DNA of 64,000 nt from Paecilomyces variotii. Taxonomy: Eukaryota. Below are positions 988 through 54,422 of the stretch, one piece after another (the stretch's first letter is position 1; the number at the start of each line of letters is the position of its first letter). The notes beneath the pieces are model-generated. The model had not been told where the DNA came from, did not search any database, and saw only the letters and a program-made list of their open reading frames with translations. Location of the stretch: assembly GCA_004022145.1 (NCBI GenBank), contig RCNU01000013.1. One strand, given 5' to 3'. The translations under genes and the position numbers were made by a program.

Positions 988-2775
988 TCAACACGAGATG
1001 CCCTGGGGCACCGTTGGAGGAATGGCATCAGGGTTCGTGAAGAAGTTGTTCGGGTCATACGCCTTCTTGATCTGGACCAGGCGGCAGACGTTCGAGCCGT
1101 AGTAGGACTCGAATGGGTTTGTGGAAATGCCACTGTCCATGTAGCCGGAGTAGGAGGCGGGTCTGGGTATCATCACGGTCAGCTACAGTTTATGCATGAT
1201 AAAGGCAGGGAGGCTAAAAGGTACTCACCCTACAATAGGTCTGAGGAAGCTCTCGAGATTGGCAAACCAGTTCTCATACTTCGTCTGCGTGGCTGTATCA
1301 TTGGATCCATGGACCTGGAACTCCAGGTGCGCGTACGCCTCCTTTCGCCAGGGAAAGGCACTATCGATGGTGCTGGTCAGGTTCCACGCGTGCCACTCTC
1401 CCCAGACCTGCGACGCATCGTCCAACTGGCCGATCATATCAACGACCTTCTTCAGGTCGTCATCCGGCAGCGGCTTCGATTTCTGCAAGAAGAACGACTT
1501 GCTGAGCCGTCTGAACCGACTCCATGCCGGTGCGACACCACGAGAACTTGAGACAGGAACCTCGTTGTACTTGAACTGCGGGTAGTTGTCGTACTGGGAG
1601 AATGGGTCCGGAACGACATTCATGATTGCGGCATTGACCTGGTTGTCCGGTACGCATTCCGTCGTTGTGTATCCGAACACACGGGAGTTATCAGTGTTGC
1701 AATTACCGGAGATTTGGACCTGGGGCTTTCCGATCTGGAGAAGTCCGGAGGAGTTGATCAGCGATTGGAGCTGCTGTTGCGATTTGCCGAGATACCAGCC
1801 CAAGACTTGGACGTTGGATTTGTACACGTTCACCTGGGAAGTGAACTCCTTGTCTGCTTTCGGAGCCCAGTCGAGGAACTGTCTGGCCACGTCATATCGG
1901 AGGCTGCTGTCGTTCCATGAAATAGCAACCATCGCTGAGCGAGGCAGAGGACGCAGGCTCAAGGTCAGCTCGACCAGGATACCATACGTGCCGCCACCAC
2001 CGCCTCTGAGAGCCCAGAATAGATCAGAGTGAGACGTCGGCGAGGCAGTGATGATGCTTCCGTCTGCGGTCACGACCTTTGCAGCAAGAACATAGTCGCT
2101 TGACATGCCCAGCGCGCGCATCTGCATGTTGAACCCGCCGGAGGAGACGAGGCCGGATAGACCGACTGTGGGACAGATACCTCCGACCCAAGTGGTGTTG
2201 TATGCATCGAGGGCTGTGTATAGAGCTCCGAGACGAATACCAGCGCCGACAGTAGCGACGGAACCAGCGGTCGAGATATTGACGTAGTTGATGTGCGCGA
2301 TGTCGATGACCAGAGTGTTGTTTAGAGCGGAGTATGCGAGGAAGCTATCAAATACCATCAGCCATCTTCCCATATCCTACATCCCATATCCTGTAACGAT
2401 CCATTTCAAGATATAAAAATAAACCACAACCAGAATCATATATATAAATACTCACTGATGACCCCCCGTCCTCGGAACAGCCTTATACCCCGTCTGCCGA
2501 GCACACTTCACCAACGCACCGACCTCATCGGCATTCACCGCATAAGCAAGCAAGGCAGGGAACTCATCGAATTGGATCTTCTCACCCATTCGAGAGTCCG
2601 TGTAGGTGTCCATGCTGGGATCGACGATGCGCTGGTTGGGGTTTCCGCCCTGCGTTTGGAAAACATGTTGCACGCAGGTTTTGAGAGCGATGGATGAGTT
2701 TCCCCCAGAGGGGGCGGCAGAAGTGAAAGAAGAGAAGAGGCCCATGATGGGTAGGAGGAGGGGTGGGAGTTTCAT
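988..2775 (-). CDS. Secreted FAD-linked oxidoreductase, berberine-bridge-enzyme (BBE/VAO) family; PynB-like cluster enzyme; 3 exons
   Basis: Hydrophobic signal peptide MKLPPLLLPIMGLFSSFTSA; spliced RTGGH(H)FLAYS FAD-His motif; GICPTVGLSG (second covalent Cys); DLFWALRGGGGGTYGI; C-terminal SYSGYMD..YYGSN..RL..IKKAYDPNNFF BBE domain. Confidence 0.9.
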
Positions 2776-3929
2776 CTTTTTTTGGTTTTTTGGTCTGCTT
2801 TGATTCCCGGGTTGGAGATATATACCACTGCTTCTTCTCTCGAGGAATCAAAGACCACTTGCTTGCTTGTTTGCTTAATAGCAATAAAGGAAACAAAGGC
2901 CAAGAAGATGATCTCCCATCCTTATACTATTATATTATATATGTACATGATTTATGCACCCCCCGAAGCCCTCAGCCTTAACTCGCCTTCTCAGACCACT
3001 TCGGATCGGATACAGGTAGAAGTTCCAGGGGGTAGTAACTACCGTTCTCAAACGGTAGAAATCCGCTATTGGGGGCGATAGTTAGTTGTGGTTCAAAATG
3101 AAATTCCCCGTTTCGATCCGTTCGGGGACGGAGGTAGAGTATATAGATAGTATGTATCATACATAACTAGTAAGCGGTAGGAAAAGGTGAGAGAGGCGTC
3201 CAATGATTTGATTCCACTCGGCTAGTTAAACGCATGACATTAAAGGGAAAAAGAAGAGGAATTTTAGTTCTGCTAAAATTAGAAGATGTCGAATTTTTGT
3301 CTCTTGTTCTTACTCTGTACTTCAAGTATGTTTAACTCCCACGTGGGATCGGGGGTTCGGATCGTTCACGGTGGCGGCCATGTGGGTTTTGTTTTTTGGG
3401 GGCGATGATCATCTTCTTTCTCACTGGGATTATGGAGGGTCTAGAGGTCGGGGTTCCTTCTGTTTATGCAGGTACGTATTTTAGTTTAGATGTTTATGTT
3501 CATGTTATTTCCGGTGGGATGGAAGGTACTTTTCTGCGGCGTGGGTGTACAGTATGTATGTATGTACATTCAGTACATGGTCTTCTAGAATTGAATATCA
3601 ATAGTAATATTATTTGTATTTCACTGTTAAGCATGTCCCATTCTAACGTAGATTACAGTAAAATCGACAAGTTCATGCAGAATCCCAGCAGCAACGCCTG
3701 TCATGACCCTCGTGTATCGTGGATAGAGTTTCTTCCCTCTAGTTAACCGCAAACCCAATCCTGTGTAGGTAATGTCTATAATCCCTCGAGTCACATGAAG
3801 AAAAGATAGAAATGTGCATGAAAGAAAGAAAAAAAAAAGGCATCAATCCGTCTATATCGTATGTTCATTACGCTGCCACTTCCCGAAAACTCTATTCTTC
3901 TTGTTCTCAAAAACAGAACTTGAAATAAA

Positions 3930-5806
3930 TCAAAATACGCGTAATTTCGGAGCGGCTATGAATCGAGCAAGGAGCACAAGGAATCCTCCAGCTGTTAGAA
4001 TGACGGCGCTGAAGGCAATCATGCCTGTGAAACCGCCGTGGTTGGCTGTGATTAGGGCGCCGCCGATGGGGGAGCCTGTTAGGCCTCTGATCACCAAGAG
4101 TAATATGTTAGTTTGGTCTCTCCTCTTTGAACGATGAATGGTTTGAAGAGGGCAGAGGATGGGGGTGCGTACCCAAACGAACAGATAGCCATCATGATAC
4201 CAATCTTGACACCGATGATTCTGTGGTCTGGGGTGATTTGAGCGATACAAGCGGATTGGAGCGAGATTAGACCACCGGAGAAAATGCCGTAGAGGACAGC
4301 GAAGGCGATGATTGCAGCGATGGATGTGATGCCGTATAGACCGAAGAGGAGGATACCGCAGCCGAGAGCGCAGCCGAACATGGCGTTGAATCTGGGGTGA
4401 TTTTAGCATTGAGAATGAATGAGTAATGGGGGTTTCTCTTTTGTCGTCGACGACTAACCTCCCAAATCTATCAGCAATAAAACCCGTCACGACTCTCGCT
4501 ACCAGCGAGCCTGCATTCAAATACGCAAGTAAGTTATTCGCGGCACTTTCGCTCATCCCGTGCGCCTGGCCATAAGTAGGCAGATAGAAGAACGGGATGA
4601 ACATCCCCCACAGAACGAAGAACATGCCGGCGCTAAAAAGGGTGTATTTCCAGTCCTTGAGAATACCGATAAAGTCTAGCTTCGGGGGTGGTTCACTGTG
4701 CTGTGAATGCGAAGTTACCGGTCTAGAAGCAATCAACCAACAGGCTGGAGTTAGGAGTCCCACGCAGATGAAGCCGGTGATCCGCGTCGCCCAGCCGAAT
4801 CCGATGTGGTCTAGAAGGTATTGGATTAGGAGCGGCCAGCATATGCCACCTAGAGAGGAGCCTGAGACGGCGATACCGAGAGCGAGGCCGCGGCATGAGT
4901 CGAACCATTGTGTGATGGATGATATTGTTGGGTAGAATCTGATCTATGAGTATACGTTTGGCTGCATATAGTTATGTGTAAGGGTAGCTTACAGCATTGC
5001 ATTTCCAATGCCAAACATGACGCCCTGTGCAAGCATGAGCTGGTAGTATTTCGTTGAAATGCTGGTGAACATGATGGAGAGAACGTAGACGAGTGATCCG
5101 GGGATGACGAGTGGCCTGGCTCCATACGAATCGTATAGAGGCCCGATGACCATACCGCCGATGAATAGGAAGAAGATCTGTAGTTGCGTTAGACTGGCTG
5201 GCCTGGGGTTGTGGTTTCTGTATGCCCAGGGGCTACGTACTTGTAAGGAACCTATCCATGCAATTACGCTGCCAGACATATCAGGTAGAAGATTTCTTTG
5301 ATAGTATGATTGGAAAGTGCCGAAGGTGTTGAGCAAACCTGCAATATATTAGATCAGGTCTCCTAGATGAACCCTTTTCAATTTCTGGACTGACCAAAAG
5401 TTGCAAAGTATGCTAGGAATCCGCCGATGACTACTAGCCACGCTCGTAGACCTCCATCTGGAGGCCTGTCATCAGCCACTGCGTCCTTCTCTTCTGAAAT
5501 GCTGTCATGTCGAATCAGGGATTCTTCGGATTGTGGGTAAAATGGAGGGAAATCTGGAAAATCTGTAACTATCGTTCTTTGGCTGCCAAATAAATCTATA
5601 TCGGAGAGCTCCTGAAAAGATAGGTGAGGATAGAGCGTTTCTTCCGACGAGGCGCTGAGAGGAGACAAGTATGCCTTCTCTGGCATCTCGACGCGAAACT
5701 GATCATCTTGGAACAGTTGATAGAATGATTGGGGTCGAAAGGTTGACGTTGGAATATCGGGTAATCCAAACCACGATCTTCGACTGTGTCTTTTGTTGTT
5801 GTCCAT
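3930..5806 (-). CDS. MFS transporter, monocarboxylate-porter-like; multi-exon
   Basis: PPDGGLRAWLVVIGGF, NTFGTFQSYY, IAWIGSLQ, SQWFDSCRGLALGIAVSGSSLGG, ADRFGR and GSPIGGAL are spread over successive minus-strand exons. Confidence 0.88.
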
Positions 5807-6251: not shown

Positions 6252-7817
6252 ATGGGACATTTCATATTACCCACTACAGTGGGCGACACTCCTGCGATCA
6301 CACGAGTTGTGCCTCTCGGTCTGCCTCTTCTACTCGTGATTGCAATTTCGTTTTCTGTCCTGCGAAAGCTGTTCCAGAAGAGCATCCCGACTCCCAAGTT
6401 CGGCTTGCCGGTCATTGGAGATGCACTGGCGTACGGAAAGGATCCTATCACCTTCGTCAGGGATGCAACCGCAAAAGTTGGTCCCGTCTTTCGTATCAAC
6501 ATGCTTCTCAATAGTATCATCTTCTTGAGAAGAAACGATTTGAACAAGATGTACTTGGAAACCAGGGAAGACGTCTGGTCATTCGGCGACGGTATGGTAA
6601 GTAGCTCCTATTTTCTAGACGACGAATAGTGGATTCTCACACTTTATAGGGCCTTTTCTTGAACAAGGTCGTGATTCCTGGCTATTTTACCCATCTCAAG
6701 CGGATGGTCAGCTCTCTCAACCGCGGGATCAACAGAACCGCTGCTTTGGAGCACTACCGCAGCATCGCGGCTGAAGAAGCGGAAAAGTCTCTTTCGAACT
6801 GGGCTTCCAAGACTGATGTTGAGATTTTTGAAGAAGCCTCTAAGTTTGCGCACAAGGTCATCGTACGGTGTCTGATGGGCCAAGATTTCTACGAGAAGAA
6901 CATCGACGAACTTTATGACTTGCTTCACCGTATGGAAGCAGACATTGGACACCCTTTTAACTTCCTCTTCCCAGACTGGGTTCCTCACCCCCCTGCGAAG
7001 CGATTGGGAAAGGCCCGTGATAGAGTCGCTGAGATCTTCCACGAGAGACTGAATGAGCGGGAGCAGAACCCCGAGAAATGGCGCAACTCTCTCGACTACG
7101 TGTCTTACACGTTGAATGATGCCTCAACCGCACACCTGAAAGAGTTCTATCCTGCTCACCACACTCTCCTTATGTTCGCTGCTCATACTAGCACGGTAGC
7201 CAGTATTGCGTGGACCATCATCCAGGTATGAAGACCGTTGTCCCTTACTTACTTGTTTGTATCCGCTAACCTCCCTGTAGCTGCTTCGATCTCCAGCTCA
7301 CATGGAACAGCTGCGCGAGGCACTTTCTGACTGTCCCAACATCCACAAGTCACCCGAGCTTCTGGCAGTCATCAAGGAGACCGGTCGTCGCTATTCTGGA
7401 GTCAACATGCTCCGCCTAGCACGCCAGCCAGTGCAGCTTCCGGGAACAGACATTACTGTTCCTACCGGGTCCGTGGTTTCCATTTCACCATATCTGATCC
7501 ACCATGACCCTGCGACCTACAAGGACCCCGAGTTGTGGGACCCCGAGCGCTGGCTCAGACCTAGTGAGGTTCCGGAGCAGAAGGGCTCTTCGAGGCAGGT
7601 GACATTCCTTCAATTCGGCGCTGGTTCGCACAGATGTCCCGGCGAAAACATGGCTGGAATGATAACTCGGGAGATGATCTCAACACTGGTCAAGAACTAC
7701 CGTGTTGAGTGGGGAACTCACGGTCCACCAAAGGACTTTTCTAAGTTGGACTTTACGAAGATTGGTAGCCCTTGGCTTGTGGGTGATGCCGCGGTGAGTA
7801 TTAGACGTCTTGAGTAG
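6252..7817 (+). CDS. Cytochrome P450 (PynD-like; CYP51-like I-helix); exons ~6252-6596, 6650-7225, 7281-7817
   Basis: N-terminal TM anchor; I-helix MFAAHTST; ExxR (ETGR); WDPERW; heme motif FGAGSHRCPG; GT..AG introns join the three ORFs in frame. Confidence 0.92.
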
Positions 7818-8351: not shown

Positions 8352-9215
8352 TCAAATTCTCGAAAGGACGATTCGGAGAATATGCGTCAATTCAGGAGCA
8401 TGCTTTGAGTCGAATACGTCGTCATGCTCTGCATTGAACAGGATGGTTCGGAAATGGTTGAACTGCTTGGCCCGCCATCGCAATGTTGGATGTAGGAAGC
8501 ACTTGCGAATAAAATTCTTCCTCTCCAATCGCACGGCTGGCACCACGGGTGCGAGCTTGATGCACTTGATCAGGGTCACGGAAGTGTTACACTTGCCTGG
8601 CAGAAGCTGGCCCGGTTCGGTCTTCGAAATGACCCCTATGCTCTCCCAGATGTGTTTCCGCATCTTGAGGAGCATACTCTCGAGCTCAACGTCGGCATCG
8701 TCGTCCTGGTCACTGTCGCTGGACATTCCATCGGAATGGGAGCTACCTGGCAAATTCATCTTCTGAGCAACGGCGCTGTAGGCCATATCTGCGATAAAAT
8801 CGTGTTCTTCGTTATCCACGAAAGCAGGGTACTGTTCTGGGTTTGCAGAATCAATCATAATAACGTGAAGTACCGTCTCGCCCTGTTCCTGCAGGAGGTC
8901 TGCCATTTTTACCGCAATCATCCCGCCCATGGACCAGCCTCCAAGAAGGTAAGGTCCAGCCGGCTGGATTTCTTGGATCATGGAGACATACTGCCGCGCA
9001 AGCTCCTCGAAGGAACCGGGCGCACGGTACGAGGAGGAGTTGTAGAGAGGAGAGGAGATACCATACACTGGACGAGCTTTCTCGGGCTCCATGTCTGCAG
9101 GGCTGAGATCTCCCAGGGTGAGATATGGGAAAGCAAGCCCTGAGACTGCGTGGATCAGAAATAGAGGTGTCAGGGGAGAGCTGGTGCTTCCCTGCATGTG
9201 CAGAACTGTTTCCAT
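8352..9215 (-). CDS. Stand-alone thioesterase (NRPS/PKS TE-type alpha/beta hydrolase; PynI-like)
   Basis: PLFLIHAVSG, GPYLLGGWSMGG nucleophile elbow, VIMIDS, C-terminal His (AEHDDVF). Confidence 0.88.
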   Translation of the reverse strand: METVLHMQGSTSSPLTPLFLIHAVSGLAFPYLTLGDLSPADMEPEKARPVYGISSPLYNSSSYRAPGSFEELARQYVSMIQEIQPAGPYLLGGWSMGGMIAVKMADLLQEQGETVLHVIMIDSANPEQYPAFVDNEEHDFIADMAYSAVAQKMNLPGSSHSDGMSSDSDQDDDADVELESMLLKMRKHIWESIGVISKTEPGQLLPGKCNTSVTLIKCIKLAPVVPAVRLERKNFIRKCFLHPTLRWRAKQFNHFRTILFNAEHDDVFDSKHAPELTHILRIVLSRI

Positions 9216-9761
9216 GGTTCTAAGGTACTTGCTTCTAGCAAGACTGTAAGGCAGAAAACAGAAGAATGATTAGGAGTATACTGCGCAAAAGCAGGGAGTA
9301 GAAAAGCCGAAGATGCTCGAGTTCTAATCTGGATGAGTCTGGTCCGGGGAAAATTGGAAGCTTTTGTCCCTACATATACCAAGACCGAGGACATCTGTTT
9401 CAGATCCCAAAACAATGCTTTTAGTCACCGGACTCCATCCGCGACAACCCACTTCATACTCCGTCTATAGACGGTCCAATTAGGCATTATCGGTCTAGTT
9501 CCGCTCGGTAGCGGATATAGATCTCGCGCTTCCACGTTCTGCGAGTGGAGAATAATCAGACGGAGCTTAACGGAGATTTTTTGTATATCAATGGAGGTGG
9601 CGAGTCAAATGGGGCACGGGGGCCAAATTGCTGATGTGTATGGATTCCCAAGTTTATAAACGACTTTGTGCCTTTGGGAAATCATGCTCATAACCAAGCA
9701 TCCAGAGTCTTCTATATCCAGATCCGGCTATCGTCAGCGAAAAGTCCACCGCTAGTTCAGG

Positions 9762-11056
9762 ATGATCCTTTCTAAGACGCTTCTAGCCGTTCTATTGACG
9801 GTCACCAGCCATCTAGCTGGTGCCGTACCCACTGTTCAATCTCGTCAGAATGCCAGAAGTTACAACTTGCCTCTGACGTGGAATTCGTACGGTTTCTTAT
9901 CCCAAATCTCTGTGGGAACACCTCCCCAGAAGCTCCCTGTCTTTGTCGACTGGACATGGGTTGGGCAATACCTCCTCACGACTTTGTGCCATGGCAATTC
10001 AAGTAACACGTACGACTGTCTCGCTACGCAGCAACCCTTGTTCAACCAGTCATTGTCTTCGTCATTCCGCAACCTCACCTCTCGGTACGGGGACCTGTCC
10101 TGGGACCCGAACCACTTCTTCTTCTGGAAGCCCTTGACTGTCGATATCAGTTCCGACATTGTCACCGTTGGTCCTAGCAGCACACGCATGATCATTCAAG
10201 CTGCAGACTTCCAGTTCAATGAGACAGCAGCCGCTTTCCCATTCGCTGGAGTCTATGGACTGTCTCCAGTTTTCAAAACCGACAACAGTATGTTCTATGC
10301 TCATCTTCATGCTAGTGATATGACACTAACATTCTCCACGCAGAAACTACAGAATCCCCATTCTACCAAGCCTGGCGCGCAGGAGATTGGCCTGAGCCAT
10401 ACGTTGCTTTCCACTATTGCTACAATGGCTCTGTGGATACCAACAAGACCACTTGTGGCGGCCATGATGGTCTCCAGACACTTGGCGGTTACAACTCTAG
10501 ACTCGTCAAGGGCAGCGTGACATGGTACGATGTCATCCAATTCCCAGAAGTTAACGTGGTCGATTTCGTCTACAACCCCGCTCTATTGGAATACTGGGCC
10601 GTTGGCCTCACTCAATTCAGCATCGGCGACGAGGTGCAGCCATTGAACACCACAGTTGGATCTGCTGCCGTCTTTGACCATGCCAGTTACGGACGTGGTG
10701 CTCCCATGTCCGTCAACGCGTACCAGAAGCTAATCAACCTCAGCGGTGCTACGCCAATCAAGCTCGACTCGCCTCCCAACAATGGTAACCAGTCGTGGTA
10801 CCAGATCGACTGCAACAAAACCCAGTCGCTCCCCCCTCTGAAGTACCAATTCTCGGGATCAAGTAAGGTCTGGGAGATTATTCCATCTAACTATGTTGAG
10901 AAGCTCGACAATGGCGTCTGCGTTCTCAACGTTCGGACCCTTGGTGACGGTGATTGGGTTATTGGCAATTTTGGAGAGACCTTCTCCAAGGACAAGTACG
11001 TTATCTTCGACTTTGAGAAGCTGAAGGTTGGTCTGGCGGACCTTAACTGGAGATGA
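9762..11056 (+). CDS. Secreted pepsin-fold (peptidase A1) protein with non-canonical catalytic motifs (PynH-like); intron ~10289-10343
   Basis: Signal peptide; ISVGTPPQKLPVFVD, GVYGLSP, YQIDC, VIGNFGETF..KYVIFDFEKLKVGLA; DTG/DSG motifs read DWT and DHA. Confidence 0.85.
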
Positions 11057-11735
11057 AGGTGGAATTGTGTTTTCTTCTACGTGTGGTTTTCTTAACTATT
11101 GGTGACATGTATGAGAAAAGACAAGATTGATGTATTCTTTGTTGCATAGATGAATTTTATATAGAATCTTATAGACGGCATATGAGCATACAATATACGC
11201 AGTATATTTCGCCTGATGGTATTTAGTCAGACTCCTGTTTGCGAATTGTGTACTAGGGTTTCTAAGATATTTTACTAGAATATATATTTACTGCGGAGTA
11301 GACACTTCACTAAATAATAAACCCCGTTATTTGTCGGCGTACAAAGCAAACGCCAGGTGATCTGCAATCAACCGTTACACCAGGTTCCCGCATGGAATTG
11401 GATCGAACCTACTGGATTCTCTGTATGCTAGAGATAAATATGGGGTCAAATCCCCCCCTAGACCTAGAGTCAAGCAAGCAATTCAGATTCTGCTTCCGTG
11501 CTGTTTAGGATTCGACATTATTACTGTTTGCAGAAATTCAGCGTACAAAGAAGTCTGTAAGTGATCTAACATATCATCCATTTGCAGAATGTTCTCTGAT
11601 ATCCTAATTAGAGGATAGAACCTGCTAGAGATCGCTAGGATGTAGATTCCTTGTTATCTCAAGAGGAAGCGCAGAATCTCGGATTTTTTCCTATTCGTAT
11701 TCCACTAGATATTCCCTTTCAGCCAGCTGACTAGC

Positions 11736-11854
11736 ACATACGACCATAGGGTGTGGAAAACAGGGCTTCCCGTCCGCTCAGCCGTACTTAAGCCACACGC
11801 CGGCAGGTTAGTAGTTGGGTGGGTGACCACCAGCGAATCCCTGCTGTTGTATGT
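11736..11854 (+). rRNA. 5S rRNA gene (dispersed copy)
   Basis: 119 nt ACATACGACCATAGGG...CCCGTCCGCTCAGCCGTACTTAAGCC...TTAGTAGTTGGGTGGGTGACCACCAGCGAATCCC...TTGTATGT with complementary ends; followed by a T-run. Confidence 0.96.
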
Positions 11855-11869
11855 TTTTATTTTTTTTTT
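11855..11869 (+). terminator. RNA polymerase III oligo-T terminator of the 5S gene
   Basis: TTTTATTTTTTTTTT directly after the 5S 3' end. Confidence 0.8.
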
Positions 11870-11885
11870 GCTGCAAAAGCAAGCA

Positions 11886-15471: not shown

Positions 15472-15733
15472 AGCAGTAAGCGTAGGCTCGGGGAATCTAT
15501 CCCATATATTCAAGGAACTGGGTATATCCATAAGGTTGAATTGTGTTGACAGCTTATCACTTTCCAAGCAACAGGTCGTGACTTAATCTCGTGCCGAACA
15601 TGTGTTGCTGCAGCAAGCGGGAAGAGTAAAAGAAGACTACTTATTGGCTTGAGCCACGCTGCCCATCGCTACGCTAAGAACAAACTACATACGCTGACCT
15701 CCGAGTTCGCTTGCACTATCCTATTCACTAACA

Positions 15734-28377: not shown

Positions 28378-31300
28378 ATGGCGTCTCCAATGTCCCGTGC
28401 CTCTCGCATCTCTCCGACTCCGTCGAACTTCTCTCTGTCTCGCCGGGCATCGGGATCGTCTCTCTCTTCTCCGCCACCAGAGACGGACCCAGCCGTGATT
28501 GTAGGCTTGGCTTGTCGTGTGCCCGGTGCACAGAACCCTAGCCAGCTATGGCAGAACATAGAGGCGCAGAAGGACCTGCGCCAGAAGATGCCGTCCAACC
28601 GGTTCAATGTGGACGCCTTCTATCACCCGGATGGGACCAACAAGGGAACTGTAAGTGGACGTTGGGATATCCAGAGAAGAACCTCTTGCTAACTAGATCT
28701 CAGACCAATGCCAAGTATGGCTACTTCCTGGACCAGGACATTGCCGACTTTGATGCGGGTTTCTTCCACATCTCTGGCAAGGAAGCTGAGGCTATGGACC
28801 CTCAGCAGAGACTACTCCTCGAGGTTGTCTATGAAGCCCTTGAGAATGCTGGCATTACACTAGACGAAATCAACGGCTCACAGACTTCTGTGTTTTGCGG
28901 TTGCTTCACTAACGACTACGACTCCATGACCAACAAGGACCTTGAGTACTACCCCAAGTACACGGTCACAGGAACCGGAAACTCCATCTTGGCCAACCGT
29001 ATCTCCTATTTCTACAACCTCCACGGTCCGAGTGCAACCATTGATACGGCTTGCTCTTCCTCCTTGGTTTGCTTCCATATGGGCACGCAGTCCCTCCGCA
29101 ACAATGAGTGTGACATCTCGATTGTTGTCGGCTCAGCCCTCCACTTCGACCCGAACATCTTCATCACTATGACCGATCTCGGAATGTTATCGGTCAACGG
29201 ACGTTGCGCTACGTTCGATGCATCGGGTAGCGGTTATGTCCGTGGTGAAGGAATCTGCGCCGCTGTCCTGAAGCGCCAGAGTCAGGCCGAGTACCATGGC
29301 GATACCATCAGAGCCGTCGTGCGTGCCTCTGCTACCAACCATGACGGTACGAAGCAGGGAATCACCCTCCCCTCCTCCACAGCTCAGGAGGATTTGATCA
29401 GGAGGGTCTACAGCAATGCTGGCCTCAACCCAGCGGACACTCAGTACTTCGAAGCACACGGAACAGGAACTGCTCGTGGTGACCCAATCGAGACAAGGGC
29501 AATTGGAGCAGTTTTCTCGAAATCTCGCAAGGATCCCTTGTACATCGGTTCTGTTAAGAGCAACATTGGACATCTCGAGGGTGCCTCGGGACTCGCTGGG
29601 ATCATCAAGACTACCATGGCTCTGGAGTCTGGAAAGATCCCTCCGAACATGCACTTCAAGAACCCTAACCCTGAGATCAATTTCGACGAGTGGAAGCTAA
29701 GCGTTCCTCAGTCTATGATTGACTGGCCTGCAACAGAGGGCCTGCGCAGAGCCAGTATCAACTCTTTCGGATACGGAGGTACCAATGCACACATTGTTCT
29801 GGAGGCCTACCAGCCTTCAGTGAGAGCCTCCGTGAGTTCTATTGAGCTGCCAAAGGAGTTCGCACCAATGGTCTCCGGAAGACCTCTGCTTATTCCGCTC
29901 ACCTCCCACTCCGAGAATGCTGGGAAACTGCTGGTCTCCCGCTTCGCCGGCTACCTCCAGGAACACCCAGACCGCAGTGTCTCGGACCTAGCTGTGAGCC
30001 TCTCGTCGCGGCGCTCGCTGCACCAACAGCGCTCCTTCGCAATTGGAAACGACCGAGAGAGTGTATTGGAAAGCCTGAACAACCCGTCTCCGAATGCTAA
30101 GTGGACAGCCGCCAGCAAGGAGAAGCCCAGACTTGGCTTCGTCTTCACCGGACAGGGCGGACAATGGTTCGCAATGGGACGTCAACTAATTCTGCAGTCT
30201 CCGCTCTTTAAGCAGACTCTCGAAAGATGTGATACCGTCTTGCAGCGTCTTCCTGACAGGCCTGATTGGTCTGTTATTGAGGAGCTCTTGCGCTCGAAGG
30301 AAGAGAGTCGCCTCGGACAGACTCGCTTCTCCCAGCCAATTTGCACTGCCCTACAACTGGCTATCCTCGATCTGCTGAAGACATGGAACATCGAGCCCTC
30401 TTCCGTTGTCGGTCACTCGTCTGGTGAAATGGCCACCGCCTACGCTGCTGGAATTCTCTCCTTCGACAATGCCATGATTGCTGCTTACTACAGAGGTTTA
30501 TACATGTCGAACGGAGTCGAAGGCGATTCTGTTGTCCGTGGTTCCATGATGGCAGTTGGACTGACTGAGATGGAAGCGCTCGGAGAACTCAAGTCATACC
30601 AGGGCAAGATCTGTATTGCAGCCGTTAACAGTCCCTCTAGCATGACGCTATCTGGAGACGAGGATGCGATTGTTCAACTCAAGGAGAGCCTCACCGAGAG
30701 GAAGATCTTCGCCCGTCAGCTCCAAGTCGCTCAGGCATTCCATTCCCACCACATGCTCCCTCTTGCTCCTGCCTATGAAAAGGCTCTCAATGGCTGCGAG
30801 GGTTTCACTCCCCAGCCTGCCAAGATTCGCATGTTCTCCAGTGTTACTGCTCGTCTTGCCGACCCGGAAAAGATGGGAGCTGAGTACTGGACTGCCAACA
30901 TGACTGGGGCTGTTCGGTTCTCGGATGCCCTGACCGGTATACTCCTTGATGATGAGGAGGAGAAGAACGTTGACATCCTCGTTGAAATCGGACCTCACCC
31001 TGCCCTCAAGGGTCCGGCCCGGCAGGTCGTGCAGTCTCTGAAGCTTGACATCCCATACGTTGCTTCATTGACTCGTGGCGTCCATGACTACGAAGGGATT
31101 CTTACTACTGCGGGTCAGCTTTTCCAGCTTGGATATCCCGTCAACCTCGAAGCAGTCAACAGCGACCATTTCATCTCGGAGACCGGTTCTATCTACCAGG
31201 TCCCACGAGGCCAGAGACTCCGAGATTTGCCCTCTTACGCTTGGGACCACAAGAGATACTGGTCGGAGACTCGCTTTATCAAGGAGCATCGTCTACGCAG

Positions 31301-34300
31301 TCAGCGTCACTCTGTGCTGGGTGCTGTGGTTCCTGGATCCGTGGCGAAGTACCCGCGCTGGCGCAACTACATCCGCCAGAAGGAGCTCCCGTGGCTGTCT
31401 GACCACGTTGTCGATGGGAAGGTCATTTTCCCAGCAGCAGGCTATATCAGCATGGCCATCGAGGCTGTTGCTAGTACTATCGACCGAAGCCTTGGGTTCA
31501 AAGAGGTCTCCTTGCGAGATGTGGTGGTGAAGTCAGCTTTGATTCTGGACGAGTCCGACGTCGGTTCCGAGATCATACTGGAGCTGCGACCGGCCACTAT
31601 TTCAGCCAAATCGAAGTCTGATGCTTGGTATGAATTCGTTATCTCCTCCTATGATGAGAACCAGAGATGCACTGAGCACTGCTGTGGTCTCATCTCCATT
31701 GAAGCTGGGGCTCCTGCTGCGTTCAAACGCCTTGACATCCATCCTACCTTCAAGGCGCTCCACAAGAAATGCAACGAATGTGTTTCCGCGGACAACTTCT
31801 ATCAGCATCTCTGGGATCTTGGTCTCCAGTATGGCAAGAATTTCTCGCTGTTGACGGGAAATCTCGAGACCGGCCCTGGCTTCGCACTGGGATCTCTCGC
31901 CTTCCAGCCAAGCCAGTACGCTGCTGAACAGGCCGATTTGACTATCATGCACCCGACGTTGCTCGATGCTTCCTTCCATGTCATCTTTGCGGCTATTGAA
32001 TCCATCATCGGTCGGCCACTCGACGAGGCTCTCGTTCCAACCTTTATCCGTTCGTTCAAGATTTCTGGTTCTTTTGCTAAGGTGATGACTGCATCTAGTG
32101 AGCAAAACTTCGAAGTCTGCTCCTTCACGCGTCTTCCCGGACCGCGTGTTGCCATCAGTGACCTGCTGGTCGCTGATAAAGGCAGCGATGAGCCTCTGTT
32201 ACAATTCCAGGGCTTGGAAGTGACGTCTCTTGGCGCAGACAGCAATGAAAACGCCGCTTCTAGGTCACTGTTCTTCCGCACCCGGTGGCAACCAGCTTTC
32301 GATCTCTTGAAATCGGATTCTCCTCTACTCTCCAACCGTGACATCAGTGAGTTAGTGGATATATTCGCCCATCAACACCCGAACAGCGCAATTCTCCACT
32401 TTACCCCAAGTGTGCAGCGTACTCGAGATGTCTTGCGCTCTCTGGGCGGCGACTCGAACGAGCGCAGGCGGTTCAAGTCCATCACCCCTGTTTTCTCACA
32501 GGAACTGCCTAGTGAGGAGCTGGAACTCCTGGCTCAAGAGAGGAGTGGACTCATCGACGTTTCCGAGCCCAAGATTGGCGAATATGACTTGGTTATTGTG
32601 AGCAACGCTGCTCAGTCCGATGTCAGCGCCTTTGTGAGAGAGGGTGGTTATGTTATCACTGACGGCCAGACCATCGATGGAAATGGGTTGACTGCTATTT
32701 TCACTACCGGAGACCTGACGGCCTGGCGCAAGGAAGTCGAGCGTGTTTCCAGCGAGGGCCCACTGACGATTATTCTGCCATCTCGGCCTTCGGAACGCAC
32801 TCTAGATCTCGCTCAACGCATCAAGACCATCTATGGCAACCCGTCCATCTCATGCACGTCGTTCGCTACGCTTGCCAATCAGCCAGCCCGTTCTGAGAAT
32901 GTCATAGTTCTCTCCAATCTCGATGAAGCATTGTTTTTCGATGAGGCGCTAGACAGCCAGCAGACATACAAGGCGGTGCAGAGTCTATTGACCAGCGCAG
33001 GCAAGAACATCGTGTGGGTCTTGGAGAGCGCAACCCTGGAGTCCTCAAAGCCGGAACATGCTATGATTGTCGGTCTCGCGCGAGTTGCTCGCAGTGAAAA
33101 TGACCAGCTCCGGCTCGTAACTCTCGATATGCCTTCTGCTCACCCCAATGACCTCACGGCAAAGCGCGTCATTGAAGTGCTCGACCGCAACCTTGAGGAA
33201 GATGAGATTGCTGAACGCGACGGGTCTCTATTCATTCCTAGAGTGGAAGCGGATGACAGCCTCAACTCTAAGTTGCGCAACGGCGTCAACTCCCAGCCGA
33301 GACTCGAACCACTGGGAAGCAGACCACTTGCTCTCAAGATCGGTAAGGTAGGTCTTCTCGAGACTCTGGTCTTCGAGGAGGATGACGAAATCTTGGACCA
33401 TGAACTCGCGGACGATGAAATCGAAATCGAAGTCAAAGCCTCCGCTATCAACTTCAGAGATATTGCAGCCTCGATGGGTATCATCGAAGACTTCAAGCTC
33501 GGTGATGAATGCTCGGGCGTGGTCCTGCGCGTCGGCTCGAATGTTGATAAGGCAGCCTTTGATGTCGGTGATCGTGTCGTCGCGTGGAGACCTGGCCAGG
33601 GTGCTCACCGTACGATAGTACGCAACCCAGCTTCTCTCTGTTACAAGCTTGGCCCGATGCCATTCGCTGAAGCGGCAGCTCTGCCACTGATTTTGACCAC
33701 AGCTTACTACTCACTTGTGGACACTGCCCGCCTGCAGTCCGGTGAATATGTGCTGATTCACTCGGCTGCTGGTGGTGTCGGGCAGATGGCTGTTCAGATC
33801 GCCCAGATGATCGGAGCCAATGTCATTGCCACTGTCGGATCTCAGGCAAAGCGCGACCTCCTCAAGAGCAAATATGGTCTCAGGGATGAGCAGATCTTTT
33901 CTTCCCGCGATGACAGTTTTGTCCAGGGTGTTATGTCCGTTACCGACGGACGTGGTGTGGACGTCGCCCTTAACAGTCTGGCTGGCAAGCTTCTTCACGC
34001 CACCTGGAGCTGCATGGCCGCGTTTGGTCGATTCATTGAAATCGGAAAGCGTGATATCCATGAGAATACTAAGATCGATATGGACCCTTTCCGGAAGAGC
34101 GTCACCTTTGCTTCAGTGGACCTCATCACTATGTTCGAGCGCAACAAGGTTCTTGGCGCTCGCGTGCTCCAGGATTGCTGCAAGTTGGTTCACGATGGGC
34201 ACATCACTCCTCCGGAGTCTATTGCTGAACTTCCTTACTCCGATGTCATCAAGGCCTTCCGTCTTCTGCAGATGGGCAAGCACACTGGAAAGGTTGTTCT

Positions 34301-37300
34301 TGTTCCGCACAAGGAGGACGTGGTGCCCGTTCGCCCGGCAACCTACCGAAACAAGAAGCTGTTTGACTCTGCGAAGACGTATCTTCTCGTCGGTGGACTG
34401 GGAGGCCTTGGACGTACTCTGGCCGAGTGGATGGTCAGAAAGGGCGCCTGCAAGCTAGCTTTCTTCTCTCGCTCGGGAGCTGAACGAGCGGAAGCCAAGG
34501 CCACGGTCGACTGGCTGCAGGCCAGGGACGTACAGGTTTCCGTATACAAAGGCGATGTTGCAAAATATGCGGACGTTGAGTCTTGCGTCCGATCTATCAG
34601 CAACCTCGGTGGTGTCTTCCAAGCTGCTATGGTCCTCCAGGATGCTCCCTTTGACAGCATGACGCACAAGCAGTGGCAGACCTGCACGCGTCCAAAGGTC
34701 CTCGGAGCCTACAACTTGCACAAGGCGACCTTGCTTCAGCCACTAGACTTTTTCGTTTGCTTCTCATCTGCATCTGGCACTATTGGATCCAAGGGTCAGG
34801 CCAACTACTCATCGGCCAATGCCTATCTCGATGCGCTTATGAGACATCGAAGGGAGATTGGTCTCGCTGGATCCACAATGAACTGTGGTATGATCGTTGG
34901 CGTTGGTGCTGTCGCAGAGAACCAGGCTCTTCAGAAGGTCATGGAGCGGATTGGTTATGATGCAGTCAACAAAGAGGAACTTCTATACCAAATTGAAGAA
35001 GCTGTTACCTCGGACAATTCGTTGAAACTTTCGCCGCGTAATGTCGAACTGCACCAGACCATTACCGGATTGAACCTTTCAAAGAACGACCTCTACTGGT
35101 CTTTCAAGCCCTTGTTCAGGAATCTGTACTCCAACAACGACTTCAACCAGAGCAGTGGTCAGACCGAGGGCAGCAAGAACCTCGCCGTATTGCTCCACAC
35201 CGCAGCTACTGTTGAAGAGCGGACGAGCCTCCTGCTCGACGCCTTCATCGAGAAGATTGCCGCTGTCCTTGCTGTGCCTGCTGACACCATCCAACCGAGC
35301 AACCCGCTGTCTGCGTACGGACTGGACTCGATCGTTGCTGTGGAGTTCCGGAAGTGGTTCGCCAAAACTGTTGGCGTCGACCTTGCGCTTTTCGACGTCC
35401 TTGGAGCCGCATCCATCATTGCCCTGGTCAACAAGGCTGTCGGTCTGATCAAGCTTGATACCTCGTCCAGCAAGGATACTTCTGAAGCCTCTGAAGCTAA
35501 CCCCAAAGCTGAAGACAAGAAGGAAACCGAGTCGACTACATCGCAGGCAGTCAGCGTCATCCCCAAGGCTGACACATCGCTGCCCATTCCGATGTCAACT
35601 TTCCAGAGCAGATTGTGGTTCTTGCACAACTTTTCCGAGGACAAGACATACCTCAACCTCCCTGTTGTCGCATACCTGAAGGGTAAACCAGACAGAGTCG
35701 CCCTGCGAGAGTCTTTGGATGAGATGAAGAGACGCAATCCAATTCTCCGAACATGCTACTTCGAGGGCGATGACTTCGCCGAGCAGATGATTACTGAAGA
35801 CTGCGATTCAAGACTCGGGTTCGAGGACTGCTCAAAGGCTGCAGAGCCTAAGAAGGCACTGGCTAAGGTCTCTGCTCGTTTGAGGGCAACAGAGCTCGAT
35901 ATCGAAGAGGGTGATGTTCTCCGAGTGACGCTGATCGATCTCGGTAATGACGAATACGCTCTTGTGTTCATTTGCCATCACATTGCCATTGATCGTGGTA
36001 GTGCTAAGTCATTCTTGGACCAAATGACTGCTATCTATGACGGCATCAAGACCAAGAAGGATCTTTCGATAATTCCTAAGCCGCAGGTCACTTACTCTGA
36101 CTTCACAGTGTGGCACAATGCATTGATCGCTTCTGCGGCACTCCAGCCCGATATCGCATTCTGGAAGGAGAAGCTAGCCGGCATCCCCAGTGCCAGCAAG
36201 CTTCTGCCTTTTGCCAAGTCTGAGAGACCACTTCACAATGACTACTCTAGATCGACATTTACCGGTACACTGAAGACTGGTCTACTCAACCGTCTGAAGA
36301 GAGTCTGCTCACAATCTGGTGCCACTCCTTTCCAGTTCCTCCTCACGGCTTTCCGCGCATTTTTGTTCCGTTACACTGAAGAGAAAGACCTGACCATCCT
36401 GGTTATTGATGGCAACCGACCTCACCCAGACGTTGAAGATGTTCTCGGTTTCTTCGTCAACATGACCCCTATCCGCTGCCAGGATGACTGCGAGGCCAGG
36501 TTCGACCAACTCTTGGAGACATTCAAGGGTCGCACTCTGGAGGCCATGTCTCACAGTAATGTTCCATTCGACGCTATTGTGGACGTAATGCAGGTGGAGA
36601 AGACTACAAGCCACTTCCCTCTTGGTCAGGTTGTTGTTAACTACCAGATGCACGGAACATTCCCTGTGTACCGCACCCAGGACTACAGCATCCATGACGT
36701 CGAGGCGGAGGACATTCCAAGTGCATGCGAGCTGAACCTCGAGGCCCTCGAAGACCCAGAGAAGGGCTTGAACCTCAGACTCGAGTACTCGACGACTCTC
36801 TACGGGGAGAATGATATGGAGCGCTTCTTTGACAACTTCATGGCCTTCCTGAGCAGCGCGATCAGGGACCACCGGCAGCCAATTGAAGAAATCAAGGCCT
36901 GCGGCCCGAAGGAGACCGAGCTGCTGAAACAGAACTACTGGAATATGAGCTACACTCCTAACCAGTGGAATGATGTGAGCGTCTGCCAGAAGATTCTTGA
37001 GAGCGCGGAAAAGCAGCCAGCTGCCAATGCCATCACGACATCCGACGGTGACAGCATTTCCTACGGTGATCTGGTGGAGCGTGCGCAGAGAATTGCTTTC
37101 TCGCTGAAGCAGTCTGGCATCACTGGCGGACAACGAGTTGGACTTCTGTCAAAGCCCGGCATTGATGCTATCACCGCAATGGTCGGTATCTTGCTCAACC
37201 GCTGCTGCTACGTCTCTCTGGACCCCGAGTTCGCAGTTGACCGACTAGCATTCATCGCCTCCGACTCTAGCTCCGCGACTATTCTATTTCAATCTCCTCT

Positions 37301-40182
37301 CACGTCTTTGGCCACAGACGTGGTTTCGAAGTCTCCCATTTCTCATCAGCTTATGGAGATTGGCGCGGCAGCTTCTGCGCAAGAGAAGCTGCAGGAATAC
37401 ACCTACTCACCAAATGATCCTTTCTACATGATCTACACTTCCGTAAGATCCAGCATCCAATTTCAATGATAAGCGCTAACTGTTTCCATTACAGGGGAGT
37501 ACGGGAAAGCCCAAGGGCGTTCTCCTGACTCAGGCCAACACGCAGCAAATGCTTGCTACGCTGAACACTGATTATCAGTTTACAGCCCAAGACAACTTTC
37601 TCCATCAGTCCTCGATCTGTTTCGATCTCTCGGTCGTTCAGATCTTCTCTGCACTGACTGCCGGTGCCCAGGTCTGCGTTGCAACTGCAGAGACGAGAAA
37701 GGATCCGATTGCTCTCGCTGATTTCATGCGAGATGCATTCGTCTCCGTGACCTACTTTACTCCTACGCAGTTCGCGTTGCTTCTCGAGCACAACAGCGCT
37801 GCTCTGCGGAAGTGCAAGAACTACCGCGTTGCTTACTCCGCTGGTGAACGTCTGCCTGTGCGGGTGGCTAAGGCTTTCTACGATCTCGGAACCCCAGCTA
37901 CTCTGTACAACACCTGGAGTCCTAGCGAGTTGGTTGTGCAGACGTCCATTCAACGTGTTGAATACCCGGCTCCGGACTGCATCAACATCCCCATTGGTCT
38001 CCCCATGGCTAACTGCCGCCACTACGTCCTCGACTCATGCCTAAACCCCTTGCCAGTCGGCTTTATCGGAGAACTGTGTGTCGGAGGAGCTCAAGTCGGC
38101 GCTGGTTACCTTAACCGCCCCGAAGTCAACGCACGCTCTTTCATCAAAGACCCATTCTGCTCTGACGAGGACTGCCAAAGGGGATGGAACAGACTGTTCC
38201 GAACTGGAGACCGCGGACGCTTCCTTCCTGATGGCCGACTCGAATTCCATGGCCGTATCGCCGGTGACAAGCAGATCAAGTTGAGAGGTTTCCGGATCGA
38301 CCTCGGTGAGGTGGAGCAGATGCTCTACCGCGAGTCTTTCACCACTGACGGACAGGGAATTGTCGATATCTCCGTCGTGGCTAGAACAGTCAACGATGAT
38401 GCCTCACTCACCGACGACCGCCAGCTGGTGGCCTATGTGGTGACGAAGCGCCCACTGTCGACACCAGCAGAGAAGGCGCAGTATGCTGCCACTCTGCAGA
38501 GCCGAGTTGAGAAGCATCTGAATGCCTACATGCTTCCCAACGGCTACCAATTCCTGGACAGCCTCCCTGTCACGATTGGAGGAAAGGTCGACCGTCAAAA
38601 TCTTCTCAGCCGCCAGCTGGATCTAACCTACCCTTCTGCAGCGACTGCTCCCACTGAAGCACCTGCAGACTCGAAGCCTCAGGTCAACAACAGTGTCCTC
38701 AATGCTGTTATCAGCCTGTTCAAGAGTGTTCTGAACACTGACCGGGACATCGCAGCGACCGACAACTTCTTCCAGCTTGGTGGTCAGAGCATCCTGCTCC
38801 TCAGACTGCAGTCTAAGGTCAAGCGAACATTCAAGGTGAACCCCAAGTTGCAAGACCTCCTCCGCTCACCTACTCCTCTAGCCATTGCGGAGATTATCTG
38901 CTCTTTGAAGGATGGCTCGACTGGCAGCAAAGCTAGCGCGCCGGCTCAGGAGATCAACTGGGAGGACGAGATCGCCTTGCCCAATGACCGACGCTTCAAT
39001 GTGCCCTATGGAGTGCCACGTGTAAACCGTTCCGATGTGGCTAACGTCCTACTCACCGGTGCCGAGTCGTTCATCGGCATCCACATGCTGGCTACCATCC
39101 TCTCGGCCCGGCCGCAGACTACGGTCTTTGTTCTGGGAACCCACCAGCCGATCCAACACCAAACGCTCAAAGAGACCTTGGAGAAGTTTAAGCTGTTCGG
39201 AGGCGAGATCGACGAGAACGCACTGATCACTCGTACCCGCTGTGTTGAAGGATGCCTAGCCAAGGAGCAATTCGGTCTTACAGACAGCTCCTTTGACTCG
39301 CTCGCCCGCTCGGTGCACTCCATCTACCACCTGGCGTCCGAGGTGTCACTGCTCAAGACGTACCGCGACCTCAAGGCGATCAACACAACCTCCATTCTGA
39401 ACCTCATCCAGCTGGCGCGCCGCGGCGACCACCTCATCGAGATCAACCACCTCTCCACGTGGAGTGTACCGCATCTTCAGGCCTGGAAGGGGACTAAGCG
39501 CACCCGTGAGGGCATTATCACAGCAGAAGAGAGTGCCACACACTTCACCCCGCCGCCTACGAATGAATATGGTTACTTTAAGGCCCGCTGGGCTGCGGAG
39601 ATGCTGCTGACCGAAGCAGCTGAACGGGGCTTTCCTGTGTCGATCTATCGCGCCGCCGCCGCGACAGGAAGTACGGCGACCGGGGTATCGGAGTCTCAGG
39701 ACGACTTCATACGTAGCGTCGTGATGAACATGATTCAGCACAAGCTGATCCCGCAGGTAGACACGTCGCCCGAGTTCGTAATCGATTTCGTGCCGGTCAA
39801 CTACCTGGCGGCAACAATGTACGACATCTCGAGCAACGAGGAGGTGTACCAACCAGGTCTGTCAATTTACCACATTGGAAACAAGCAGCCACTGCATCTG
39901 AACGAGCTGCCGGAGCTGCTGGGGGAGATCCGGGGAGATGGATCCGTGGGACAAGCGATCCCGCTGGTGGAGTGGCTGCGAGTGCTAGCCGAGGGAGCCG
40001 ACGAGAAGGAACAGCTGCGGTGGGCGGTGACAAAGGACTACTTCATGAACGGACATACCATGTTCGCGCTGGACCGCACCAACACGGATGCGGTGCTGGA
40101 CGTGGTCGGTGAGAGTGTGGACTGCCCGAGGATCGACGTGCAGTACCTACGACAGATGTGGCGGGATGGAACCAACGCATAG
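28378..40182 (+). CDS. Hybrid HR-PKS-NRPS, ~3,899 aa (KS-AT-DH-MT0-ER-KR-ACP-C-A-T-R0); exons 28378-28650, 28704-37442, 37495-40182; PynA/PytA-like
   Basis: KS DTACSSS/EAHGTGT/NIGHLE; AT GHSSG, AFHSHH; DH HVVDGKVIFP; ER LIHSAAGGVG; KR GGLGGLG..YSSAN; ACP GLDSIV; C HHIAIDRGS; A YTS^GSTGKPKG, FDLS, FRTGD, GKVDR; T FFQLGGQSI; R-like LLTGAESFIG. Confidence 0.96.
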
Positions 40183-54008: not shown

Positions 54009-54422
54009 GTTTGCTGTGCCTCAGGGAGAGATTGTCTTGAACTATGATAGACAGTATCGTATTCGTATGCGCCGGGTGGCTTTCCGTAACTGACCGCACG
54101 TGCAAGAATTATAGCTGAGGTAGATTTGTCGAGAGAAAGTATTGATTATATAGATCAGAGTGGAAAGAGTGAAAACCCCCTATTCGAGTACCTAGTTACA
54201 CTGATTCTAGTAGATATCATATGGTCAAGTTTCGGGGTCGACGGTCCGAATTGGGAATCTCGGACCCGAGCAGAACCACCATTCAGTTTTCGAGATGTGT
54301 CGATGAATGCTTTGTCTATGCACAGAAATCATTCTAACCCGAAGCTCAGAATCCGTCCATGATTCCACTTCTAGTTGTCGCAACACGTGTGCGCCTCTGT
54401 GCATACATCTCATACAGACGAC

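Follow-up and report, generated by a model that had tools for sequence, protein, structure and literature searches.

The closest described system to the locus analyzed here is the pyn cluster of Aspergillus niger (pynA-I and pynR; An11g00250-An11g00310 region), which makes pyranonigrin E. In the published account of this pathway, PynA, a polyketide synthase fused to a nonribosomal peptide synthetase (PKS-NRPS), uses L-serine, PynG and PynD make the gamma-pyrone, PynE and PynB interconvert the two end products, and PynH dehydrates the serine-derived alcohol to an exo-methylene group, which is the only role that this account reports for PynH (PMC7902601). The PynC step is described there only as 'methylation', a pynC deletion still yields the fully processed demethylated compound, and the cluster was silent by RNA-seq (PMC7902601). 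Here, we describe a related locus in Paecilomyces variotii, which lies in a stretch of 64,000 nucleotides of contig RCNU01000013.1 (NCBI GenBank assembly GCA_004022145.1), the whole of which is called the window below. An earlier note on this DNA had pointed to a resemblance to the pyn cluster and to the pyt cluster of A. terreus, and had proposed an apparently complete, methyltransferase-less PKS-NRPS cluster between positions 988 and 40182.

Three other groups of known systems come into consideration. The pyt cluster makes pyranterreones, and we know it here from the protein names PytA, PytB, PytH and PytI. The pyr cluster of Penicillium thymicola, the An18 cluster of A. niger and the pyv cluster of A. 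violaceofuscus form the second group, that of pyranonigrin A and pyranoviolin A; there the gamma-pyrone is made by a flavin-dependent monooxygenase (FMO) and a P450, a logic that the window would share. These clusters differ from the window in having a second FMO besides an alpha/beta hydrolase and a GMC oxidoreductase, in using glycine (so described for the PyrA homologue PyvA), and in that Table 2 of the paper lists no aspartic-protease-like gene (PMC7575713). No GMC oxidoreductase domain was found by Pfam in the window open reading frames (ORFs) scanned. The third group, the curvupallide (cpa) and olumilide (nopp) pathways, was compared by description only; these PKS-NRPS-derived pyrano[2,3-c]pyrroles arise via tetramate epoxidation, with N-hydroxylation and O-methylation steps as a difference and no pepsin-fold gene mentioned in the portions of the account available, and nopp additionally has a trans-enoyl reductase (trans-ER), an active C-methyltransferase domain and threonine as its amino acid (PMC12340962).

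We concluded that the P. variotii locus is probably the counterpart of the A. niger pyn cluster, that is, a nine-gene pathway to a tetramate-derived pyrano[2,3-c]pyrrolone. The gene map was obtained by running Pfam on 25 and then on 17 further stop-to-stop ORF translations of the window, and introns outside the PKS-NRPS gene were taken from spliced contigs of sequencing run X1 that are identical to the window, together with predicted canonical introns. Pfam places all nine genes claimed by the earlier note where it had put them (Table 1), all of them within 988-40182, and these limits are the two outer stop codons of the cluster. The nine spliced models are open throughout, in agreement with the claim that there is no frameshift or internal stop. 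The transcription factor given at 22916-25555 coincides exactly with its ORF, and three divergent pairs were confirmed, namely MFS/P450, thioesterase/Asp-like and reductase/PKS-NRPS (MFS, major facilitator superfamily). Every enzyme class of the pyn pathway as described in PMC7902601 is present except PynC: besides the PKS-NRPS and the PynH-type protein, both clusters have a free thioesterase, a P450, an FMO, an FAD-linked oxidase, an NAD(P) reductase, an MFS transporter and a Zn2Cys6 factor. The proposed link to pyn and pyt held up through the identity of the PKS-NRPS, its place in the tree, a PynH/PytH-family protein and the names pytB and pytI among relatives, and so did the proposed lack of a methyltransferase within the boundaries. 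The cluster proteins are deposited as hypothetical proteins in ∼20 strains.

Table 1. Genes, promoter sites and other features of the window (BBE, berberine bridge enzyme; aa, amino acids; SAM, S-adenosylmethionine)
Feature	Position	Strand	Model or remark	Profile match
BBE-like FAD-linked oxidase (PynB/PytB type)	988-2775	-	536 aa; 3 exons, introns 1163-1228 and 2345-2455; PRTGGHH motif	FAD_binding_4, 1225-2376
MFS transporter	3930-5806	-	516 aa; 6 exons	MFS_1, 3930-4943
Cytochrome P450	6252-7817	+	485 aa; haem motif FGAGSHRCPG; introns 6596-6648 (spliced, X1) and 7226-7280 (predicted)	p450 on two exons, 6650-7817
Free thioesterase	8352-9215	-	287 aa; single exon; GWSMGG nucleophile motif	Thioesterase (PF00975), 8352-9269
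Asp-like protein (PynH/PytH type)	9762-11056	+	412 aa; 2 exons, intron 10288-10343 (predicted, canonical)	Asp, 10319-11056
FAD-dependent monooxygenase (FMO)	18295-19975 or 18295-20095	+	436 or 438 aa	FAD_binding_3, 18283-19071
Zn2Cys6 transcription factor	22916-25555	+	879 aa; single exon	Zn_clus + Fungal_trans, 22865-25555
NAD(P)-binding reductase	26761-27590	-	251 aa; 2 exons, predicted intron 27414-27487; GATGG motif	NAD_binding_10, 26761-27435
PKS-NRPS	28378-40182	+	3899 aa; exons 28378-28650, 28704-37442 and 37495-40182; introns 28651-28703 and 37443-37494	KS-AT-DH-ER-KR-ACP-C-A-T-R, 28180-40182
CCG-N8-CGG promoter sites	starts 3042, 3118, 6015, 9461, 9501, 18011, 18014, 22299, 22367, 27890, 28029			
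Non-pathway block	11057-18294		between Asp-like gene and FMO	Pfam, Rfam
Repeated element	∼11330-11520		very high depth in all four runs	
5S rRNA gene	11736-11855	+	full length; just 3' of Asp-like gene	Rfam RF00001, 84.6 bits
DUF7791 ORF	11886-13724	-		Pfam
PNP_UDP + NACHT	13643-15408	+	first 134 of 164 NACHT profile positions, then stop	Pfam
F-box gene	15698-17503	+		Pfam
Peroxin-3	left window edge			Pfam
Second MFS transporter	∼41.9-43.5 kb	+	multi-exon; directly 3' of PKS-NRPS	
5-Aminolevulinate synthase	∼44.0-46.1 kb			Pfam
Class I SAM methyltransferase	53151-54020	-	intact; 13 kb beyond PKS-NRPS	Pfam
DUF218, F-box, second Zn2Cys6, DUF7726, INO80	further right			Pfam

The PKS-NRPS gene model comes from a tblastn alignment of P0001, a P. 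variotii protein, combined with a scan of GT-AG pairs. Its product is 99.4% identical to P0001, and its large exon shows 99% identity to a P. variotii hypothetical protein. The domain order is the same as in PynA, no C-methyltransferase domain was found in it by Pfam, and all the catalytic motifs sought were found (DTACS, GHSSG, HxxxGxxxxP, GLGGLG, GLDSI, HHIAID and SGSTGKPK). A database search returned 4026 significant matches among 8000 scored candidates, where the best named match outside Paecilomyces was a 90% cluster with PYNA_ASPNC as a member (65% identity across the large exon). At full length, we observed 62.6% identity to PYNA_ASPNC over 3892 of the 3899 residues, and identities of 53.2%, 53.5% and 52.0% to PyrA of Penicillium thymicola, the An18 enzyme of A. 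niger and PytA, respectively. We built a FastTree tree of 35 rows and 3858 columns from the window protein and 34 named near-full-length matches or cluster members, leaving out unnamed partial Logan, ENA and JGI rows. In this tree, the window enzyme and that of P. variotii No. 5 are sister to PynA (SH-like support 95), the next group comprises the pyranonigrin A enzymes PyrA and An18 (support 100), and PytA stands in a separate clade with A. lucknowensis, A. tanneri and A. steynii.

We also placed the ten pocket positions of the adenylation (A) domain by motif anchors, using PheA numbering. The placed pocket of the window enzyme, D-L-V-Y-Y-A-T-V-Q-K, equals that of PytA at 10 of 10 positions, agrees at 9 of 10 with PynA (D-L-V-Y-L-A-T-V-Q-K), the user of L-serine, and at 7 of 10 with PyrA (D-L-V-Y-L-C-A-V-Q-K), so that pyr differs at three placed positions. 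This comparison favours a serine-type substrate. In the terminal R-type domain, the glycine motif is degenerate (LLTGAESFIG) and YxxxR replaces YxxxK, likewise in all the relatives aligned, and these features would fit a non-reductive release.

The second component that ties the locus to this family is the Asp-like protein. It is 54.9% identical to PynH, 51.1% to PytH and 70.6% to a Thermoascus protein, and its family gave 104 matches among 256 candidates in a collection of 5.8 billion sequences, including the proteins named pynH and pytH in Swiss-Prot. The pepsin-dyad aspartates, D63 and D287, show no variation across the 16 family members that were aligned, with FVDWTW and FDHASYG, shared across the family, in place of the two DTG/DSG motifs. 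The protein is predicted to have a pepsin fold: its AlphaFold2 model (pLDDT 82.9) matched renin, proteinase A and chymosin in Foldseek with E values of ∼1e-22. Many of the matches are on contigs equal in size to those of the PKS-NRPS matches of the same species, or have locus tags adjoining them, as in Verticillium (ACHAQA_001980/_001983) and Gallowayella (Q9224_000553/_000549).

Among the tailoring genes, the oxidase belongs to a narrow subfamily. Its exon has 15433 relatives among representatives, the score drops steeply after ∼15 of them, and 15 of the 150 listed representatives exceed 200 bits. Ten representatives were looked up; one of them, 58% identical and annotated 'FAD-linked oxidoreductase pytB', lies on the same contig as a PynA-like PKS-NRPS, and three (Cladobotryum, Eremomyces and Xylaria) lie on contigs equal in size to those of PynA-like and PynH-like proteins of the same species. 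BBE-like oxidases are predicted in both the pyranonigrin and the pyranterreone pathways in the source consulted (PMC11375781). For the thioesterase, the closest cluster in the Atlas bears the name 'Thioesterase pytI' (score 0.98). The names pytI and pytB on these relatives are automatic or transferred. The FMO models carry GGGLGG, GADGIRS and GDAAH motifs. Both the oxidase and the Asp-like protein have hydrophobic, signal-like N-termini, and therefore the late steps may run in the secretory pathway.

Next, we compared the locus with relatives returned by a metagenome scan with the Asp-like alignment. Nine loci were returned, and the window exons were placed by tblastn on three of them, L004, L002 and L008. 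The order oxidase(-), MFS(-), P450(+), thioesterase(-), Asp(+), FMO(+), transcription factor(+) is identical in the window, L004 and L002, while L008 has a rearranged gene set with an ABC transporter in place of the MFS protein. By exon, the P450 is 62-85% identical to that of L004, and the Asp-like protein 61-76% to L004 and 52-57% to L002; the transcription factor is 72% identical to its L004 orthologue, and the reductase 47% to an ORF in L008. The P450 is syntenic in L004 and L002, the reductase in L008, and the FMO and the transcription factor in all three loci. Likewise, the thioesterase, divergent from the Asp-like gene in the window, adjoins it in all three. In L002, the transcription factor is followed by a free-standing zinc-ADH gene of trans-ER-like type (19149-20228, + strand of that locus), which the window does not have.

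Beyond Paecilomyces, Thermoascus and PynA, the nearest relatives come from lichen-forming fungi, namely Caeruleum heppii and Teloschistaceae including Xanthoria, Teloschistes, Gallowayella, Gyalolechia and Caloplaca. Identities of the lichen homologues lie at 60-64% (PKS-NRPS) and 64-70% (Asp-like exon). To our knowledge, no product of the pyrano-pyrrolone type is known from these lichens.

We then asked what the cluster promoters share. Six promoter regions, 3864 bp in total, were fixed before the motif search. A plain k-mer search of these six regions yielded only GATCTGGA, in four of them. A different result was obtained with paired triplets: among 48 triplet-pair types (three orientations, spacings 0-15), CCG-N8-CGG alone reached six of six regions. 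It occurs 22 times in the window compared with 11.4 ± 3.2 times in shuffled versions, none of 100 shuffles reaching 22, and 11 of the 22 sites fall inside the 3864 bp of promoter (binomial p = 1.5e-8). In the orthologous promoters, we observed 7 of 9 sites in 5 of 5 promoters of L004 (p = 3.5e-5), 4 of 8 sites in 4 of 5 promoters of L002 (p = 0.03), and 2 of 4 sites in 2 of 2 promoters of L008 (p = 0.11). Of the 24 promoter sites, 21 have a pyrimidine at position 4 and 21 have a purine at position 11, giving the consensus CCGY-N6-RCGG. The thioesterase/Asp promoter has paired sites 40 bp apart in the window and 38 bp apart in L004. We found no CCG-N8-CGG site in the intergenic regions of the NLR-like (NOD-like receptor) pieces of the block described below, near the second MFS gene or near the methyltransferase at 53 kb; two sites lie within the F-box ORF. 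This pattern supports a common regulon of the nine genes, in which CCGY-N6-RCGG would be a candidate operator of the cluster's own Zn2Cys6 factor, being of the kind expected for such factors. The second MFS gene was considered as a tenth member of the cluster and left out, with no such site nearby or upstream.

Evidence of transcription came from contigs of run X1, which we take to be RNA because 15 canonical splice joints are listed for it. At least 15 splice joints with canonical ends on the correct strand were observed, and contigs without differences from the window confirm 12 introns (two in the oxidase, five in the MFS, one in the P450 and four to five in the FMO gene). Spliced transcripts were thus seen for no fewer than four genes of the cluster (oxidase, MFS, P450 and FMO), and X1 contigs also cover the thioesterase gene (without differences) and the Asp-like gene. 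The FMO gene has an unusually long intron of 193 nt (19343-19535) in the X1 spliced contigs, in which an optional last intron (19946-20059) also removes the stop codon at 19973-19975 and leads to another C-terminus with the stop at 20095. As the spliced contigs come from both sides of the block that separates the Asp-like gene from the FMO, the genes concerned are transcribed in at least one condition. In this respect the P. variotii cluster differs from pyn of A. niger, with its silence by RNA-seq.

By analogy with the pyn pathway (PMC7902601), we infer the following chemical steps; the amino acid used, the length of the chain and what the motif does are likewise predictions. The PKS-NRPS would make an unbranched, largely unsaturated polyketide and join it to a small hydroxy amino acid, most likely L-serine. 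The chain would be released as a 3-acyl-tetramic acid by the free thioesterase, by the non-reductive R-type domain or by both. The FMO and the P450 would then form the fused gamma-pyrone, the pepsin-fold protein would dehydrate the serine-derived CH2OH group to an exo-methylene, and the NAD(P) reductase and the BBE-like oxidase would interconvert the methylene and methyl forms. The MFS protein may export the product, and the Zn2Cys6 factor may drive all the promoters through the CCGY-N6-RCGG sites. The product is likely to be a desmethyl, serine-type pyrano-pyrrolone.

Several observations weigh against this assignment. As orthologues of PynD, PynG, PynE and PynR, the P450, FMO, reductase and transcription factor are putative, assigned through domain type and conserved synteny, and the link of the thioesterase to PynI is also indirect; the top Atlas row for the thioesterase may be the protein's own cluster, and an Atlas search with FMO exon 1 returned generic FAD monooxygenases only. 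In the pocket, one position differs from PynA (Y in place of L), and the positions were placed by anchors with PheA numbering; because of this difference, threonine or another small residue is possible. The ER domain (residues ∼1681-2010; window ∼33.5-34.5 kb) has an intact HSAAGGVGQ NADPH motif, and no other domain is better conserved (76% identity to PynA and 79-80% to lichen homologues), so some saturation of the chain is possible. The side chains of pyranonigrin-type compounds are unsaturated, and this ER domain is puzzling. At 62.6% identity to PynA, the chain length would not be predictable, and a methyltransferase unlinked to the cluster may possibly lie elsewhere in the genome. As for transcription, run X1 is labelled RNA by guess only, the X1-X4 contigs were compared with a 19.2-kb stretch outside which the PKS-NRPS, transcription factor and reductase genes lie, and the metatranscriptome contigs of X2-X4 are 95-99% alike and unspliced, hence uninformative on expression or habitat.

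Alternatively, the same enzyme family might perform other chemistry here, diverging after the tetramate stage or using a different amino acid or chain, so that the product would be nearer to the pyranterreones or have an undescribed scaffold. The moderate identity to PynA, which falls to only 40-48% in the T and R domains, the pocket that is unlike PynA at one placed position and equal to PytA, and the intact ER motif all point in this direction, as does the additional trans-ER-like gene of L002, which indicates that relatives vary in their tailoring. On the other hand, the window has the full pyn enzyme set apart from PynC, all of it intact, its PKS-NRPS groups in the tree with PynA as sister rather than near PytA, and it has kept a PynH-type protein, whose sole role in the account of PMC7902601 is dehydration of the serine side chain. 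We therefore regard this divergent chemistry as rather improbable, and prefer the pyn-type pathway.

A predicted departure from the A. niger pathway concerns methylation. PynC probably methylates nitrogen. The earlier note had stated that no PynC-type methyltransferase lies within the cluster boundaries, and Pfam indeed detected no methyltransferase domain among the 25 large ORFs, nor among 113 gap ORFs at least 55 aa long between 1 and 44.5 kb (drawn from 156, with 40 beyond 55.5 kb and three overlapping the PKS start left out). Similarly, scanning 70 gap ORFs from L004, L002 and L008 (of 111, short overlapping ones being dropped) revealed no such domain. With PynC missing from the cluster, the end product should lack the PynC methyl group.

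It could be argued that the product is methylated after all, either by an unlinked methyltransferase or by the intact class I enzyme 13 kb past the PKS-NRPS. A homologue of the latter, 67% identical, is the 'probable methyltransferase ltbC' (Swiss-Prot) of Aspergillus luteorubrus, indicating that members of this family can occur in clusters. We nevertheless rejected this enzyme as a displaced PynC. It belongs to a widely conserved, housekeeping-like family that is 66-83% identical across many, even distant, ascomycete classes, with homologues annotated as arsenite or UbiE methyltransferases, and the name pynC was not seen among the best 120 of its 690 matches. The housekeeping gene for 5-aminolevulinate synthase stands between it and the cluster, the nearest CCG-N8-CGG sites are at 49630 and 58332, and in A. 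brasiliensis CBS 101740 the methyltransferase homologue and the PynH homologue are on contigs of differing size. Considering also the gap ORFs of the three related loci, we find a methylated product very unlikely and retain the desmethyl one.

Unlike pyn of A. niger, the window cluster is interrupted by ∼7 kb of unrelated genes, among them one for 5S rRNA. The interruption proposed in the earlier note was confirmed by Pfam, with DUF7791, PNP_UDP + NACHT and F-box genes between the Asp-like gene and the FMO. The distance from the Asp-like stop to the FMO start is 7.2 kb in the window, compared with 2.6 kb (L004) and 1.4 kb (L002) in the relatives; hence the block at 11.1-18.2 kb is outside the conserved module. 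Comparison by blastn of the Asp-FMO interval with that of L004 gave a single 87-bp match, beside the FMO start, and the breakpoints of the insertion are therefore not fixed to the base. No convincing repeats flanking the block were found in a repeat search, and no 5S gene was found in L004, L002 and L008. DUF7791 normally follows NACHT. In the block, the DUF7791 (-) and PNP_UDP + NACHT (+) pieces stand head to head, suggesting either a single NLR gene broken up by an inversion or a pair of truncated genes. Within the repeated element, neither a tRNA (ARAGORN) nor an Rfam match was found. Many contigs in all four runs break off at 11330-11370 and 11503-11521, with high depth and loose ends over 11330-11870, and a 30-nt direct repeat (11334-11363 and 11538-11567) is 73% identical.

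Some variation was also seen among P. variotii strains. Of the 21 members of the orthologous PKS-NRPS cluster, 15 are listed, 14 of them at or close to full length (3798-3899 aa), and the member from DTO271G3 (P0172) has only 1168 aa. In the same strain, the annotation divides the Asp-like protein into a 190-aa and a 187-aa piece (P0425 and P0432). The short PKS-NRPS and the split Asp-like protein could be a strain-level decay or an artefact of assembly or annotation. P. variotii has, in addition, a second, distant PKS-NRPS paralogue (DTO271G3_7274; P0115), 50.7% identical to the window protein and in a clade with Penicillium vulpinum, and a 198-aa Asp-like fragment (DTO271G3_7272; P0277) lies two locus tags from it. 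Together they make up a second cluster in this superfamily, which is possibly degenerate. That the window cluster itself is a decaying relic, its two halves uncoupled by the 7.2-kb block of 5S rRNA gene, NLR-like pieces and F-box gene and yielding no end product, is a suggestion to which the DTO271G3 proteins lend some colour, but it is hardly credible given that all nine reading frames are open, that genes on either side of the block are spliced in X1 and retain the promoter motif, and that nearly all the listed PKS-NRPS members are of full or near full length.

The above results indicate that the cluster is a further member of a well-characterized family, and a reasonable and unsurprising target for genome mining. 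The predictable difference from pyn is the missing PynC step, which appears to be common to the relatives examined. We found no publication tying P. variotii to this cluster, judging mainly from search results rather than full texts; in PMC9087587, as far as its text was available, the P. variotii and cluster terms co-occur only in the reference list.

P. variotii is a common heat-resistant mould of food spoilage and indoor environments, in which the intact genes offer a concrete mining target. The predicted desmethyl branch is known in A. niger solely from the pynC deletion mutant. The candidate operator CCGY-N6-RCGG would mark the regulon better than gene adjacency does, and there is evidence that the family of PynH-type pepsin-fold enzymes is very small and always accompanies PKS-NRPSs of this lineage. 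The cluster is also an example of one that has stayed open in reading frame and transcribed despite a 7-kb insertion in its middle (5S rRNA, NLR and F-box genes).

P. variotii belongs to the Thermoascaceae and A. niger to the Aspergillaceae. We tentatively suggest, as a speculation that may well prove wrong, that the methyltransferase-less nine-gene module with its CCGY-N6-RCGG operator is the ancestral and widespread form of the pathway (Teloschistaceae, Thermoascus, Xylariales and Dothideomycetes), to which the PynC step of A. niger would have been added later. The P. variotii module would then be transcribed without artificial activation and might make an undescribed N-H pyrano-pyrrolone with a chain unlike those of the known pyranonigrins.

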